Sequence record: NC_024125.2
DNA length: 64,000 nt
Direction: 5' to 3' (one strand)
DNA from: Escherichia phage vB_EcoM_112
How positions within the stretch are numbered: the first letter of the stretch is position 1; every line of letters starts with the position of its first letter. The position numbers were made by a program, and so were the translations under genes. The notes below the pieces were generated by a model. It was not told the origin of the DNA. It made no database searches and was given only the letters and a program-made list of their open reading frames with translations. Positions 2,628-62,792 of this stretch are shown piece after piece.

Positions 2628-3632
2628 TTAGCTCACCAACTCAATCCAAGCTGGACGAAGTACATCTTGTACCATTTTAACTAATTCCTTTTTAATCAAA
2701 GAAGGATTATCTGCTTGAGTTAGAGTAATACCTTCACGAGAAGTTTCTTCCAAAATATCTTGAACAGTTAGCCCCATCACCTTTCCAAAATCTTTAGGAC
2801 CAATTTCGCCAATTTTAGAAATAACGTTATTTACTCGGTTCAGTGTAACGTAACAAGCTAAAATTCCCACCAATTTGTTATTGGCTTCTGATAGCTCAAC
2901 TTTAGCTTTAATAGGCTTATCAGACTTTTTCTTTTCACTAAATTTAGAATTCTTGCATTTGATAGCGACACGATTTCCATTACGAAGCCAAGAAGGATAA
3001 CAAGGTTTCAATACATATCCTTCAGCGGTAAATACTTCGCCTTTTGCTTCGGCATTCCAGACGCATTTATTTGCATCAACTAATCCAGCATGGTCTACTG
3101 TAAAATTATAATCTTGGACGACAGAATCTAAATCATTTGGCAATTTAATAAGCTCTTCAAATTTACCGCGACCTAAAAGTGGAGCCATTTTAAATTTAAA
3201 TGTATTGCAGAATGATTCCATCATATAATCGTCGACATAAGTCACATCACCACTTTCTGTAGTGACAATAATGTCAAATACATAAAAATCTTTATCGCCA
3301 TAATCGACATTCTTCTGAATGCCAGGTCCAGCGAATTCGCCAAAGACTTGATAAGATACAACTGCTGAAGTTTCCATAATATCTTGTACTGCTTTAATGG
3401 AATCAGCGTAATTCTTTAAAATAATTTCATACCCAAAGAAATCTTCAGCAGGAAGAATTGGTCCAGTACGTTTAGCGCAAGTTACTTTATCACGCTCAAT
3501 AATCAATGAGAAATTTGTACCATGAATCTTTTCACGAGCTACCCATTCGCCGCCAGTCAATCCCAAGCTATAAAGTTTTTCAATAAATTTAGAGTTGTAA
3601 TGATTTTCAAGACTGCTATACTTTTTAAACAT
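2628..3632 (-). CDS. rnlB: RNA ligase 2
   Basis: 334 aa; N-terminus [16 protein letters not shown]...[10 protein letters not shown] contains nucleotidyltransferase motif I (KxHG); matches remembered T4 Rnl2. Confidence 0.9.
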
Positions 3633-3641
3633 AATTAATCC

Positions 3642-3920
3642 TCAAAATGTAATTTCTAACCAATCACCATCACGCTGATCACTATTAACTTTAAAGCTGA
3701 ATCCTTCTTTTCTCAGCCAATCACCAATTTCTTCAGTAATCAATTTATCACGAGCAATACAATAATAATTAAAATGTGTTTTACCTTGTTCAGCTGCTTT
3801 ATTAGCAAGTTCTGAAAAATCTTTAATAAAACACTCTAGCTTAAACTGTTTACTTTTAAGTGCTTTTTCGCGTAATTGATTAGCAAAAGATTCATTTTCA
3901 TAAAGATCATACTGTTCCAT
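3642..3920 (-). CDS. Hypothetical protein (T4 24.2 position)
   Basis: 92-aa ORF, synteny between rnlB and hoc. Confidence 0.6.
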   Translation of the reverse strand: MEQYDLYENESFANQLREKALKSKQFKLECFIKDFSELANKAAEQGKTHFNYYCIARDKLITEEIGDWLRKEGFSFKVNSDQRDGDWLEITF

Positions 3921-59840: not shown

Positions 59841-59981
59841 TTACCATACTAGTGAATGTAGTGCCATAATAACATCAGAAATGAAAAGCACGACTTGAAT
59901 TAATCCGAACATTACTCCATAATATAGTGCTACTAATAAAGTAGCAAGGGCTAATGAATAGCCCAAGATTTTCTTAATCAT
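59841..59981 (-). CDS. Small hydrophobic protein (~46 aa; T4 52.1 position)
   Basis: Hand-translated MIKKILGYSLALATLLVALYYGVMFGLIQVVLFISDVIMALHSLVW; coordinates approximate. Confidence 0.45.
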   Translation of the reverse strand: MIKKILGYSLALATLLVALYYGVMFGLIQVVLFISDVIMALHSLVW

Positions 59982-60132
59982 TAGTAGATAACAACACAAA
60001 TGTTAAATATGCACACATACCCTGGGCTAAAGCTTGTGAAAACACACTGCTAGCATCGATACAGATAGTTAAAACACATGCTACTATCCAACAAATAAAT
60101 GAAATAACTCCTAATAATTTTGCGATATTCAT
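59974..60132 (-). CDS. ac: Small membrane protein (~51 aa; Ac-like)
   Basis: Hand-translated MNIAKLLGVISFICWIVACVLTICIDASSVFSQALAQGMCAYLTFVLLSTND; size and position fit T4 ac; coordinates approximate. Confidence 0.5.
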   Translation of the reverse strand: MNIAKLLGVISFICWIVACVLTICIDASSVFSQALAQGMCAYLTFVLLSTND

Positions 60133-60139
60133 ATTTTCC

Positions 60140-60220
60140 TCACTGGCGTCCGAAGACGCCTTTAGTTTTAAGATTATTACGATAGAACTGCATCACGTGT
60201 TCGTTGTGGAAATTACTCAT
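60140..60220 (-). CDS. stp: Stp peptide (26 aa)
   Basis: Hand-translated [26 protein letters not shown], matching the T4 Stp peptide as I recall it; ATG overlaps ndd stop (TAATG). Confidence 0.7.
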
Positions 60221-60678
60221 TAATATGCCTGCAAAACGAATTTAAAATTATCAGCCAACATACGGTTCATTTCTTCAAGTGTTTGATACTCAGAATGATG
60301 ATTACGAGTAAACGCTAAAGCTAACTGTCCTTTTCCAAATCCCGTCGTCAGAGGTTTCATCTTAGAAGCAGGCAGATAAAATACTGTGTATGGAACATTG
60401 TTATTTGCAATAGTACGTGCAAGCTGAGACCGACGTTGACGAATATGACTTAGAACTGCACTGAATCCTTGCTTAGAACGCTGATTACCTACATAAAATC
60501 GCGCAGACACACATGGATTACTAAATGGACGACCATCTAATTTACTTACTAAAAAGTAAAATCCAGGTTTAGACAAAATGTCTTTGTGCGGAGTTCCCAA
60601 AAACCACTCACCACCCTTGATTGTACCAATAACAGTTGCGCCTGCATTGTTCAAATCAGTAACAGTCATGTATTTCAT
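60220..60678 (-). CDS. ndd: Ndd nucleoid disruption protein
   Basis: ~152 aa from [18 protein letters not shown] (SD AGAGGAAA upstream); track ORF has a 17-codon extension lacking an RBS. Confidence 0.85.
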
Positions 60679-60738
60679 ATTAATTTCCTCTAAATTATTT
60701 TCTACTCCAAGGCCGCATGAATACACACGGCCATTAAA

Positions 60739-60954
60739 TTAATCGTCGCAGTCGACGCTCAATTCCCAAAACTCTTCTACGGTATAAGTTTCAATATCAT
60801 TTTCAATACAGAAACGTTCATTACTGTTGTTTGCTAAAGTAGCGTTAACTGTCATTTTTTCGCTAGTGCTCTTAAGAGGTGAAATACGAATTAACTGATC
60901 ACCGTTATCTAAACAAAAAATTTCACCAACTTTTACATCTTTAAAACTTTTCAT
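60739..60954 (-). CDS. Hypothetical 71-aa protein (ndd.1 position)
   Basis: ORF. Confidence 0.5.
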   Translation of the reverse strand: MKSFKDVKVGEIFCLDNGDQLIRISPLKSTSEKMTVNATLANNSNERFCIENDIETYTVEEFWELSVDCDD

Positions 60955-61069
60955 AATTCACCTCAAGGAGTATAAAATCCAAACGCAGTTGTTGACCATC
61001 CCATCCAATACGGGAAATTTGCGCCAATGTAAAACATAAGAATATAAAACCAACCGCTCAGCAAATTCA

Positions 61070-61288
61070 TCATTTTACACCATTCCAAATTGTTTCAACC
61101 ACGGATTTTAAACCATTTTGATGAATATCCATTCCGACTACCGCCATCAAATAGATTCCAACTACAACTGAACCTAAGGCAAAAATCAGCATGAAAATGA
61201 ATAAAGCCGGAAAAATATTATCGAAAAACCATTCAATAAATGTAAAAGCACTGCGTTTACGCTTCATATTTTCCTCACATAAATCCAA
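61070..61288 (-). CDS. Small membrane protein (72 aa)
   Basis: Two predicted TM helices (IFPALFIFMLIFALGSVVVGIYLMAVVGM). Confidence 0.5.
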   Translation of the reverse strand: MDLCEENMKRKRSAFTFIEWFFDNIFPALFIFMLIFALGSVVVGIYLMAVVGMDIHQNGLKSVVETIWNGVK

Positions 61289-61388
61289 AGTAAACGTTTA
61301 ATACATCAATCATTAAAACGATTGGGAATATACTCAAAACTATTAGTATTATAACTACATTCCATATAGCTTTAATAATCTTTTTCAT
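61275..61388 (-). CDS. Small membrane protein (37 aa; start MKKIIKAIW)
   Basis: SD GGAGGAAC 6 nt upstream of internal ATG; the longer track ORF begins upstream of the early promoter at 61417-61446. Confidence 0.5.
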   Translation of the reverse strand: MKKIIKAIWNVVIILIVLSIFPIVLMIDVLNVYFGFM

Positions 61389-61416
61389 TTTCTGTTCCTC
61401 CGTAGTTGATAGGGTA

Positions 61417-61446
61417 ATAGTACCACGGAAGAACAGTCTTGTAAAC
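61417..61446 (-). promoter_or_regulatory. Early promoter cassette (GTTTAC...TACTAT, leader CTATCAACTACGGAGGAAC)
   Basis: Repeat family member. Confidence 0.55.
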
Positions 61447-61630
61447 AACTTTTTAAAAATATTCGTAATAAATGTGAATACCAACTACTACCGCTGAAAC
61501 CTGCGCAACCCACCACGCACAAGCAATAAGTACAGAATTCAAAATTTTCATAATAACCTCATCACAAAAGTAAATGTTAAACAAATTACTGGAATACTAA
61601 TTAACCAAACAAAACACCACCATAGTGAAC

Positions 61631-61894
61631 TCATAGCTCAATCTCAATGATTTCAAGATTATTTTCTTTAATAGCTTTCTTTAAATCATCGTAAATAAGA
61701 ACTTCCCAAGAATTGTTTAAATCACCATTCAACAAACGCTCTTGCTGCAATTTATCAGTAAGATATGGTTGATCTGATTCATATTTAGACAATCCCAATG
61801 AAATAAATGATGTTGCATCGTCAATTTCAGAATATTGTACATGAACAAATTCACCTGTGATTTTATGTTTAACATAAAAGAATTTAAATTTCAT
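61631..61894 (-). CDS. Hypothetical 87-aa protein
   Basis: SD GGAGGAAC upstream; early promoter cassette at 61922-61951. Confidence 0.6.
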   Translation of the reverse strand: MKFKFFYVKHKITGEFVHVQYSEIDDATSFISLGLSKYESDQPYLTDKLQQERLLNGDLNNSWEVLIYDDLKKAIKENNLEIIEIEL

Positions 61895-61921
61895 TTTTGT
61901 TCCTCCGTAGTTGATAGTTGT

Positions 61922-61951
61922 ATAGTACCACGGTCCTTGTGGTATGTAAAC
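61922..61951 (-). promoter_or_regulatory. Early promoter cassette (GTTTAC-18-TACTATAC, leader CAACTATCAACTACGGAGGAAC)
   Basis: Repeat family member; drives ORF 61631-61894. Confidence 0.6.
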
Positions 61952-61972
61952 CGTTTTGTGAAAAAATTTTTT

Positions 61973-62530
61973 TTAAATGGAAAGATACCATCCGTTGTAG
62001 TTGCTTTTTCTTACAACCTTACGAAGGTCTTCTCTATCACCAATGAACTTCGGAGTGTACTGGATGACACCTGGATGAATTTCTTTAGTGTTGAATATAA
62101 TTATACAGTCAGCGACTTGATGATTCAGAATGGGCCCTAGATTTATTCCAGAACCGTATGGATACTCTCCGCTGCATCCGGTTGTTACCGAAATCCATCG
62201 TGAGTCAGTTTGATGTGTTTTGACTTCTACACGAAGCCCACAGTATTTTGGATGCGCCAATACATCCCATGCATATGTATATGGGTCATTAACATCCTCT
62301 TGGCCTTTGTTAACATACCCGCTTAGCCAATCTGCTACAAAAAATTCTGCGTACACAGCGATACGGCATCTTTCGATAACTTCTGCCTTATCCTGATTCG
62401 GATTTTGTTTTAAAGAGTATCTTGCTGTATCAGCAATTTTGACCTTCATTTCACTAGTCAAGTCACTGTTCGATAGGGTAAATGTCGGAATCTGAAATAG
62501 TCTCTGTAACCCCGGATTCGTTTTCTGCAT
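61973..62530 (-). CDS. denB: DenB endonuclease IV
   Basis: 185 aa (T4 DenB length); synteny next to rIIB. Confidence 0.78.
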   Translation of the reverse strand: MQKTNPGLQRLFQIPTFTLSNSDLTSEMKVKIADTARYSLKQNPNQDKAEVIERCRIAVYAEFFVADWLSGYVNKGQEDVNDPYTYAWDVLAHPKYCGLRVEVKTHQTDSRWISVTTGCSGEYPYGSGINLGPILNHQVADCIIIFNTKEIHPGVIQYTPKFIGDREDLRKVVRKSNYNGWYLSI

Positions 62531-62792
62531 TTAAACTTTCCTTTTTACCACTAAGATAAGCGTTATACACTTTAAGAGTACCATAGTAAATTCGATCATT
62601 TTCATCTAAAGAATTACGATCAAGTTCATCGAGATTCTTTTTGTCCATGACTATAACATCATTGCAGTAAAGAACTCCAAGTTTTTCATGCCCAAACTCG
62701 AATTTATTGCAGTACACAATATTAGCGTAATGATTACCATGTAGAGAAATTTCTTTTATGTCGGTGTCACCGATATTCATACAATAAATCAT
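62463..62792 (-). CDS. Hypothetical 109-aa protein
   Basis: ORF; 3' end overlaps the denB 5' region. Confidence 0.5.
   Translation of the reverse strand: MIYCMNIGDTDIKEISLHGNHYANIVYCNKFEFGHEKLGVLYCNDVIVMDKKNLDELDRNSLDENDRIYYGTLKVYNAYLSGKKESLNAENESGVTETISDSDIYPIEQ

Follow-up and report, generated by a model that had tools for sequence, protein, structure and literature searches.

Conserved genes for predicted membrane micro-proteins around ndd in the T4-like phage vB_EcoM_112

Around ndd, the gene for the nucleoid disruption protein, Escherichia phage vB_EcoM_112 carries a run of very small, mostly hydrophobic open reading frames (ORFs), and the question that this locus raises is whether such short frames are genes at all and, if so, what their products do in the infected cell. 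We analysed positions 59841–61640 of a 64,000-nucleotide (nt) stretch of the genome (sequence record NC_024125.2), the whole of which is referred to here as the window. Taken as a whole, the interval is very probably the known non-essential early block of T4-type phages, composed of real micro-protein genes whose uncharacterised members would act like Ac, the acridine/acriflavine sensitivity gene product. So understood, it would be a dispensable, early-transcribed hyperplastic region built from very small minus-strand genes.

Between 58.5 and 63 kb of the window, every gene lies on the minus strand. When each gene is started at the first ATG that either follows a Shine-Dalgarno sequence or is coupled to the stop codon of the preceding gene, the interval comprises ndd and nine small ORFs of 26–71 amino acids (aa), where a first-pass annotation had counted at least six. 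In order of increasing position these are 52.1 (59841–59981, 46 aa, beginning MIKKILGYS, 98% identical to T4 gp52.1), ac (59974–60132, 52 aa, MNIAKLLGV, 96% identical to T4 Ac), stp (60140–60220, 26 aa, 100%), ndd itself (60220–60678, 152 aa, 98%), ndd.1 (60739–60954, 71 aa, 97%; phrog_2183), ndd.2 (60963–61073, 36 aa, MMNLLSGWF, 97%; phrog_4135), a 65-aa gene that corresponds to T4 ndd.3 plus ndd.2a (61070–61267), ndd.4 (61275–61388, MKKIIKAIW, 100% identical to T4 over its 37 aa; phrog_3098), ndd.5 (61453–61551, 32 aa, 100%; phrog_5011) and ndd.6 (61548–61634, 28 aa, 100%; phrog_8851). The five peptides that the first-pass annotation had quoted, namely Stp and the four whose first residues are given above, are all found on this strand at these positions. 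It had also suspected its ORF list of over-extending genes, and three entries were indeed stretched to upstream TTG or GTG codons (72 instead of 65 aa; 69 instead of 37 aa, running through a promoter; and 168 instead of 152 aa for ndd).

The region is matched by 573 phage records, of which the top one is 98.4% identical, and the close matches all belong to Tequatrovirus. Gene order corresponds one-to-one to that of the T4 reference, with amino-acid identities of 96–100%, which agrees with the earlier placement of the locus between gene 52 and denB of a T4-type phage. Gene content and order identify the interval as the 52.1-ac-stp-ndd-ndd.1...ndd.6 block known from T4-like phages, here in a Tequatrovirus. 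Every small ORF has a PHROG match that spans its whole product, and three have Pfam matches: 52.1 (DUF7396), Stp (PF08133, Nuclease_act) and the 65-aa protein (DUF7248). Because each ORF is already annotated in the T4 reference, the gene block is not new; among its small genes only stp and ac have a described role. The earlier statement that such genes are under-annotated does not apply to T4 and holds for many of its relatives: stp and ndd.6 are annotated in only two of nine records in which both are intact throughout, and numerous deposited T4-like genomes lack annotation of intact stp, ndd.6 and sometimes 52.1. What the locus still offers is annotation hygiene and a set of six conserved membrane micro-proteins that have no assigned function even in T4, the phage studied best of all.

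The hydrophobic character of the block is pronounced. Six ORFs (52.1, ac, the 65-aa ORF, ndd.4, ndd.5 and ndd.6) contain a 19-residue window with a mean Kyte-Doolittle value of at least 1.6, their maxima being 2.2–3.1; Ndd.2 is borderline (1.17), aromatic-rich and devoid of charged residues. Ndd.6 is almost wholly hydrophobic and Ndd.5 has one hydrophobic helix, whereas Stp and Ndd.1 are hydrophilic, the latter being an acidic, soluble protein. The claim that most of the small ORFs encode a single transmembrane helix thus stands for six of them, is doubtful for ndd.2 and fails for Stp and Ndd.1. In 52.1, Ac, the 65-aa protein and Ndd.4, the N-terminus is basic and the C-terminus acidic or neutral, a layout from which N-in, single-pass insertion is predicted. 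The hydrophobic micro-proteins are therefore predicted to be single-helix peptides of the inner membrane, and the labels "outer membrane" and "periplasmic" in T4-derived annotation are old localisation guesses that do not fit these features. Outside the membrane, the motifs GLKSVxxTIWNG, LKAIWN...SIFPIV and W..xW..SIPxIC are conserved, which suggests specific contacts.

Are these ORFs genes, or do they merely reflect base composition? With 36% A and 14% G on the plus strand, the minus strand is rich in T and poor in C, a composition that favours codons for Phe, Ile, Leu and Val; a hydrophobic 19-mer is present in 23% of all six-frame ATG-initiated ORFs of 26–80 aa in the window; and the hydrophobic products have never been seen by mass spectrometry. 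Composition nevertheless predicts far fewer of them than there are: six hydrophobic ATG-initiated ORFs occur on the minus strand of these 1.8 kb, as opposed to 0.82 ± 0.92 in composition-preserving shuffles, none of which (0/500) reached six. We then compared 14 Tequatrovirus relatives, namely nine GenBank records and the five IMG/VR contigs whose loci were recovered in a scan with Ndd, to which the selection analysis therefore refers. The small ORFs are intact in almost all of them, the few exceptions being the 65-aa gene of RefSeq T4, a T2 "escape mutant" record with two nonsense codons, and one IMG/VR contig in which the reading frame changes at the last codons of ndd.6. Ratios of non-synonymous to synonymous substitution (dN/dS, Nei-Gojobori) are 0.23 for 52.1, 0.02 for ac, 0.14 for stp, 0.08 for ndd.1, 0.12 for ndd.2, 0.09 for the 65-aa gene, 0.05 for ndd.5 and 0.13 for ndd.6, each based on few substitutions because the relatives are close and the ORFs short; ndd (0.08) and denB (0.04) served for comparison. 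In alternative frames the ratio is about 1 or above, except for one alternative frame of 52.1 (0.20) and for ndd.4. Pooled over seven hydrophobic ORFs (the six clear ones and ndd.2), variable sites are distributed 20/10/58 over codon positions 1/2/3 (chi-square p = 3e-10), and in ndd.5 ten of the 11 fall at position 3.

Translation signals and distant homologs point the same way. A Shine-Dalgarno GAGG or GGAGG, or a stop-start overlap, precedes every start except that of 52.1, which has an 8-nt overlap with the end of ac. Family members are recognisable in Dhaka-, Gapriver-, Mosig-, Kanagawa- and Gelderlandvirus, where Ndd itself is only 54–62% identical: homologs of 52.1 in Dhaka-, Gapriver-, Mosig- and probably Gelderlandvirus, of ac in Mosig- and Gelderlandvirus, of the 65-aa family and ndd.2 in Kanagawavirus, of ndd.4 (61% identical) in Dhaka-, Gapriver- and Kanagawavirus, and of ndd.6, with its W..xW..SIPxIC motif, in all five of the other genera examined. 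By these comparative data the reading of the ORFs as products of chance is effectively refuted, and we regard it as exceedingly improbable; with the exception of ndd.4, the small ORFs are real protein-coding genes under purifying selection, in agreement with the earlier claim that they encode proteins.

Among the hydrophobic products, Ac is the one from which a function can be argued. It matches phrog_2501 (3.7e-25 over residues 1–51), has one strong hydrophobic helix and a second short one, is preceded by a GAGG Shine-Dalgarno sequence, and is encoded, as in T4, between stp and 52.1. Deletion of ac is reported to make T4 acriflavine-resistant, and expression of Ac to sensitise E. coli to acriflavine and ampicillin (bioRxiv 10.1101/2025.06.30.662393; PMC13250531). 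A G38R change in Ac is reported to confer resistance, and Ac is proposed to insert into the membrane and block AcrAB-TolC (bioRxiv 10.1101/2025.06.30.662393); this idea is thus already published as a preprint and is not novel here. The vB_EcoM_112 protein retains Gly38 and carries an extra Thr (..LLSTND) three codons before the stop, a variant that is reported to leave acriflavine susceptibility unchanged in phage PP01 (bioRxiv 10.1101/2025.06.30.662393). Ac of vB_EcoM_112 would therefore be expected to confer acriflavine sensitivity. A nonsense codon interrupts ac at codon 11, and another the 65-aa gene at codon 45, in the T2 "escape mutant" record (PV648364.1), which is consistent with the dispensability of both genes in the laboratory.

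By extension from Ac, the products 52.1, Ndd.2, the 65-aa Ndd.2a/3, Ndd.4, Ndd.5 and Ndd.6 may act as small transmembrane ligands, each of which would modulate a particular host inner-membrane complex and so give a conditional advantage in some hosts. The sa-delta-9 deletion, which runs from 52.1 through denB, gives 50% of the wild-type yield and abolishes the T4-induced stimulation of phospholipid synthesis (PMC6071114), and one of the micro-proteins might cause that stimulation. A more specific version, in which the proteins form an AcrZ-like toolkit with a different inner-membrane machine for each ligand, one of them redirecting phospholipid synthesis towards phosphatidylglycerol, is a tentative idea drawn from analogy, less probable than otherwise; if true, it would explain the sa-delta-9 lipid phenotype, which is 35 years old and maps to this 3.4-kb block.

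Dispensability is well documented. A deletion from gp52.1 to rIIB is viable and was rebuilt with Cas13a selection (PMC9712115), and in a CRISPRi-ART screen in a laboratory host all genes of the block were scored "Not Fit" and gene 52 "Fit" (PMC11879866 supplement). Transcripts of all block genes are classed as early in T4 (PMC9697503 Table S2), and Ndd and Ndd.1, the latter early, were detected in the T4 proteome (PMC9697503 Table S2). Of the small products, Stp alone has a documented part in host takeover or anti-defence, the role that had been suggested for the cluster. Such a part has been proposed for Ac and is hypothetical in the remaining six, each knockdown being without fitness effect in the laboratory host.

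Several points weigh against the view of the block as real genes with Ac-like products. In the T4 proteome, 52.1, Ac, Stp, Ndd.2, Ndd.2a, Ndd.3, Ndd.4, Ndd.5 and Ndd.6 are listed as undetected ("NA") (PMC9697503). Peptidomics had been named earlier as a check on the small ORFs, and here the published proteome, which found no small hydrophobic product, puts this down to technical causes: small size or low early expression, with Ndd.4 (P39249, 5 kDa) as the size example (PMC9697503). For 52.1, ndd.2, ndd.2a/3, ndd.4, ndd.5 and ndd.6 the literature searched holds no known phenotype; a full-text search found no functional study of ndd.1 to ndd.6 or 52.1, and ndd.1 to ndd.6 are given as being of unknown function (PMC6071114). 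The topology prediction draws solely on hydropathy and the positive-inside rule, the dN/dS comparison used closely related sequences and short ORFs, and in ndd.4 all five sites that vary across 15 sequences are conservative non-synonymous changes with no synonymous one, so that purifying selection within Tequatrovirus is not demonstrated for this gene and conservation across genera is its sole support. Finally, the modulation of host membrane complexes is proposed solely by analogy with Ac, whose own mechanism is a preprint-stage proposal.

The same proteins could instead be general membrane-damaging peptides: comparable to holins or to type I toxins (Hok, TisB, Ibs and ShoB, for example), they would serve host shut-off or superinfection exclusion by depolarising the inner membrane. 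Their size (28–65 aa), single hydrophobic helix and early expression are those of type I toxins, and many small immediate-early genes of T4 encode host-lethal products (Kutter et al., PMC6071114). However, none of the hydrophobic micro-proteins matches a Pfam or NCBIfam type I toxin family (Hok, Ldr, TisB, Ibs, ShoB and others) at E ≤ 0.1, the lone exception being a sub-threshold match of Ac to Bac51 (14.8 bits against a cut-off of 150). The conserved motifs GLKSVxxTIWNG, LKAIWN and SIPxIC suggest specific contacts rather than bulk perturbation of the membrane. T4-infected cells, moreover, need an energised membrane until lysis. Ac sensitises specifically to acriflavine and ampicillin, and toxicity of Ac in drug-free cells is not described in the available portion of the preprint (bioRxiv 10.1101/2025.06.30.662393). 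Taking both sides together, we consider general membrane damage quite unlikely.

An anti-defence island, in which each micro-protein has its own host immune system, in some cases a membrane-bound one, that it inhibits or that senses it, seems improbable as well, if not to the same degree. Stp is a precedent within the same operon, the hyperplastic region is flanked by promoter-early stem-loop (PeSL) recombination cassettes and adjoins a hypervariable 87-aa gene, and the lack of a fitness effect was recorded in a laboratory host with few defence systems. Yet anti-defence genes usually turn over fast, and the micro-proteins are 92–100% conserved within the genus, with dN/dS of at most 0.23 where it could be estimated (that is, apart from ndd.4); rapid turnover is shown by the 87-aa gene only. 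PADLOC gave no matches, its library holding defence rather than anti-defence proteins, and the literature search found no published phenotype.

Stp is the small member of the block whose role is documented. Its ATG (60220–60218) shares an A with the TAA of ndd (60222–60220), giving TAATG at 60222–60218, and the product matches PF08133 (2e-21, 75.3 bits where 25 is the cut-off, positions 1–26 of 26) and phrog_6763 (4.4e-21). Both the identification of Stp and its overlap with the ndd stop, as reported in the first-pass annotation, are thereby confirmed, and the action on EcoprrI/PrrC that it named agrees with the literature: Stp is necessary and sufficient for activation of the latent anticodon nuclease PrrC (specific for tRNA-Lys), binds the type Ic restriction complex EcoprrI and alleviates its DNA restriction, and also inhibits EcoR124I (PMC3014915). 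The 18 N-proximal residues are critical and conserved, with suppressor mutations clustering at residues 4–14, whereas the C-terminus is dispensable and polymorphic (PMC3014915). Variation among the 14 relatives fits this pattern of a fixed N-terminus and a polymorphic C-terminus, residues 1–16 being invariant, L17F occurring in two relatives, and C-terminal variants being found in YUEEL01 and T2. Inhibition of type Ic restriction and activation of PrrC can be inferred for Stp of vB_EcoM_112 from its 100% identity to the T4 peptide. Unannotated homologs of Stp are present in Dhakavirus IME341 (locus 2950–3024) and Gaprivervirus PSD2001 (locus 2816–2890); the loci from Mosig-, Kanagawa- and Gelderlandvirus yielded no stp.

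Gene 52.1, intact in all 14 Tequatrovirus relatives, encodes a hydrophobic protein whose MIKK N-terminus is predicted to lie inside, and its first 8 nt overlap the end of ac. The protein matches DUF7396 over its whole length (3.5e-23, 81.9 bits where 27 is the cut-off, positions 1–46 of 46) and phrog_3595. Searched with phmmer against all Protein Data Bank (PDB) chains at E ≤ 10, Ac and 52.1 gave no match; Stp likewise had none among PDB sequences, and the 65-aa protein had one chance match.

On the other side of stp, ndd has its ATG preceded by GAGG. An AlphaFold2 model of Ndd.1 built from a shallow alignment reached a pLDDT of 42 and was not used. The start of ndd.2 overlaps the stop of the 65-aa gene upstream of it (ATGA), and the Kanagawavirus homolog of its product has the same PYW.G motif. 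The 65-aa protein has a basic N-terminus (MKRKR), one long helix and the conserved tail GLKSVxxTIWNG; it matches DUF7248 (4.4e-20, 71.9 bits where 27 is the cut-off, profile positions 4–57 of 58) and phrog_2401 (positions 6–62 of 63), and its ORF is intact in 12 of the 14 relatives. In RefSeq T4 a single base is missing directly behind the start codon of this gene, which reads ATGAA-CGT where vB_EcoM_112 has ATGAAGCGT (T4 RefSeq locus 3433–3629), and the missing base leads to the split annotation of ndd.3 and ndd.2a. In two resequenced T4 genomes (loci 1435–1632 and 1665–1862) the ORF is intact and identical to the vB_EcoM_112 copy, and this comparison indicates that T4 ndd.2a and ndd.3 are one 65-aa gene. 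Consistent with an annotation split, ndd.3 is a PHROG singleton in the CRISPRi-ART table (PMC11879866 supplement).

The start of ndd.4 has a similar history. Its product has an MKKIIK N-terminus and one helix, and its start, preceded by a GGAGG Shine-Dalgarno sequence, is the one that is conserved across relatives and gives 37 aa; the 42-aa start in T4 (locus 3637–3765) uses an ATG made by an ACG-to-ATG change inside that GGAGG Shine-Dalgarno. The split of ndd.2a/ndd.3 and the 42-aa start of ndd.4 in RefSeq T4 look like artefacts that propagate into screens, CRISPRi-ART having treated ndd.3 separately. Further upstream, ndd.5 is preceded by a GAGG Shine-Dalgarno sequence, and ndd.6 starts in an ATGA overlap with the end of the 87-aa gene that precedes it.

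Expression of the block would be organised by two PeSL cassettes, by translational coupling through the ATGA and TAATG overlaps, and by messenger RNA (mRNA) hairpins. As described, a PeSL combines an AT-rich tract, a TTTACW-N17-TAYWAT early promoter, a stem-loop over the promoter and a Shine-Dalgarno sequence with ATG (PMC2839356, PMC4122927); such cassettes occur as repeats on either side of variable small genes, and PMC4122927 Fig. 6A takes the ndd.4-denB locus as an example. Upstream of ndd.4 (61389–61450, minus strand) we identified an AT-rich tract, a GTTTAC −35, a TACTAT −10 extended by TG, and a stem-loop; a second copy, with TTTACA-17-TACTAT and TG, precedes the 87-aa gene (61895–61955, minus strand). 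A promoter scan placed early promoters of the form TTTACA-17-TACTAT with extended TG at 61445–61417 and 61950–61922. Both cassettes share GTGGTACTAT-N4-CTATCAACTACGGAGGAACA, 34 nt with 30 specified positions and a 4-nt variable spacer, for which 0 copies are expected by chance and which occurs only twice in the window; the ndd.4 cassette forms a 40-nt direct repeat with 61894–61933. By sequence layout, both can be assigned to PeSL, a type whose experimental properties are promoter and terminator activity and the formation of mini-circles. Between the two copies lie ndd.6/ndd.5 and the 87-aa gene, which is present, absent or allelic among relatives.

In the ndd.4 cassette, the stem-loop (61392–61436) has a 15-bp stem that pairs the promoter spacer with GGAGG (−22.7 kcal/mol, z −4.0); the second cassette has a 7-bp stem. 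Since the 3' stem arm covers GGAGG, the ribosome-binding site of ndd.4 could be masked on read-through transcripts, while it would be free on transcripts from the proximal promoter. Two other hairpins lie on the minus strand. A C(UUCG)G tetraloop hairpin, GGCGUC-UUCG-GACGCC (60145–60160; −12.3 kcal/mol, z −2.6), occupies stp codons 21–26 directly 5' of the ac Shine-Dalgarno, within the dispensable C-terminal codons of stp, and its palindrome is flagged on the plus strand by a terminator scan. In the ndd.1-ndd intergenic region there is a 9-bp GC-rich hairpin (60711–60732), the 61-nt stretch around which has a folding energy of −16.6 kcal/mol (z −3.1); it is followed by UUGGAG and by no U-tract, and may serve RNA stability or processing. 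A middle-promoter-like site of the MotA-box type, TGCTT-N14-TATTAT, lies inside 52.1 and upstream of gene 52 (59866–59890, minus strand); this pattern match probably serves gene 52. Between 59500 and 62600 no Rfam family was matched, apart from one snoRNA match at noise level (E 0.54), and the plus strand showed no convincing promoter-terminator pair above consensus noise; these two observations bear on a possible antisense antitoxin RNA.

Just outside the interval, the 87-aa gene (61631–61894, minus strand; phrog_2390) encodes a soluble homolog of ORF268 of Yersinia phage PST. With its own PeSL it is absent from T4 and T2, and its alleles are 52–64% identical between neighbourhoods that are otherwise 95–100% identical. 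The AlphaFold2 model of the protein is an alpha/beta domain (pLDDT 84.7) with no fold match in the PDB. In PST (locus 3116–3294), ndd.5 and ndd.6 are intact, unannotated and 100% identical to those of vB_EcoM_112; since PST keeps both, ORF268/269 represents an insertion and not the exchange drawn in PMC4122927 Fig. 6A. Upstream of denB, a 109-aa ORF (62463–62792, minus strand) that is absent from T4 overlaps the annotated 5' end of denB by 68 nt, and the denB start itself differs among annotators of relatives (558 as opposed to 477 nt).

Compared with the known systems, the block resembles its T4 counterpart (NC_000866, 165209–166996) in order, strand, overlaps, promoters and protein sequence. 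It differs from T4 in one extra residue in Ndd, in the 65-aa gene, which is intact here and split by a missing base in the RefSeq T4 copy, and in the 87-aa gene, which here stands with its own promoter cassette between ndd.6 and denB. Ac has the same predicted two-helix layout as T4 Ac and differs from it in the Thr insertion near the C-terminus. AcrZ is a small inner-membrane regulator of the host that binds AcrB. The working model for Ac would liken the two in size, single transmembrane helix and action through a large membrane complex; the phmmer search of PDB chains with Ac and 52.1 showed no sequence similarity, and the relation would be one of functional analogy and not of family membership. 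Stp (PF08133; Penner et al. 1995, as reviewed in PMC3014915) has the identical 26-residue sequence, with no difference, and the same position over the ndd stop. The promoter cassettes share with the PeSL of T4-type phages (Arbiol et al., Comeau et al.) their layout and their repetition beside a variable gene, and differ in that the 3' stem arm of the ndd.4 copy extends over GGAGG.

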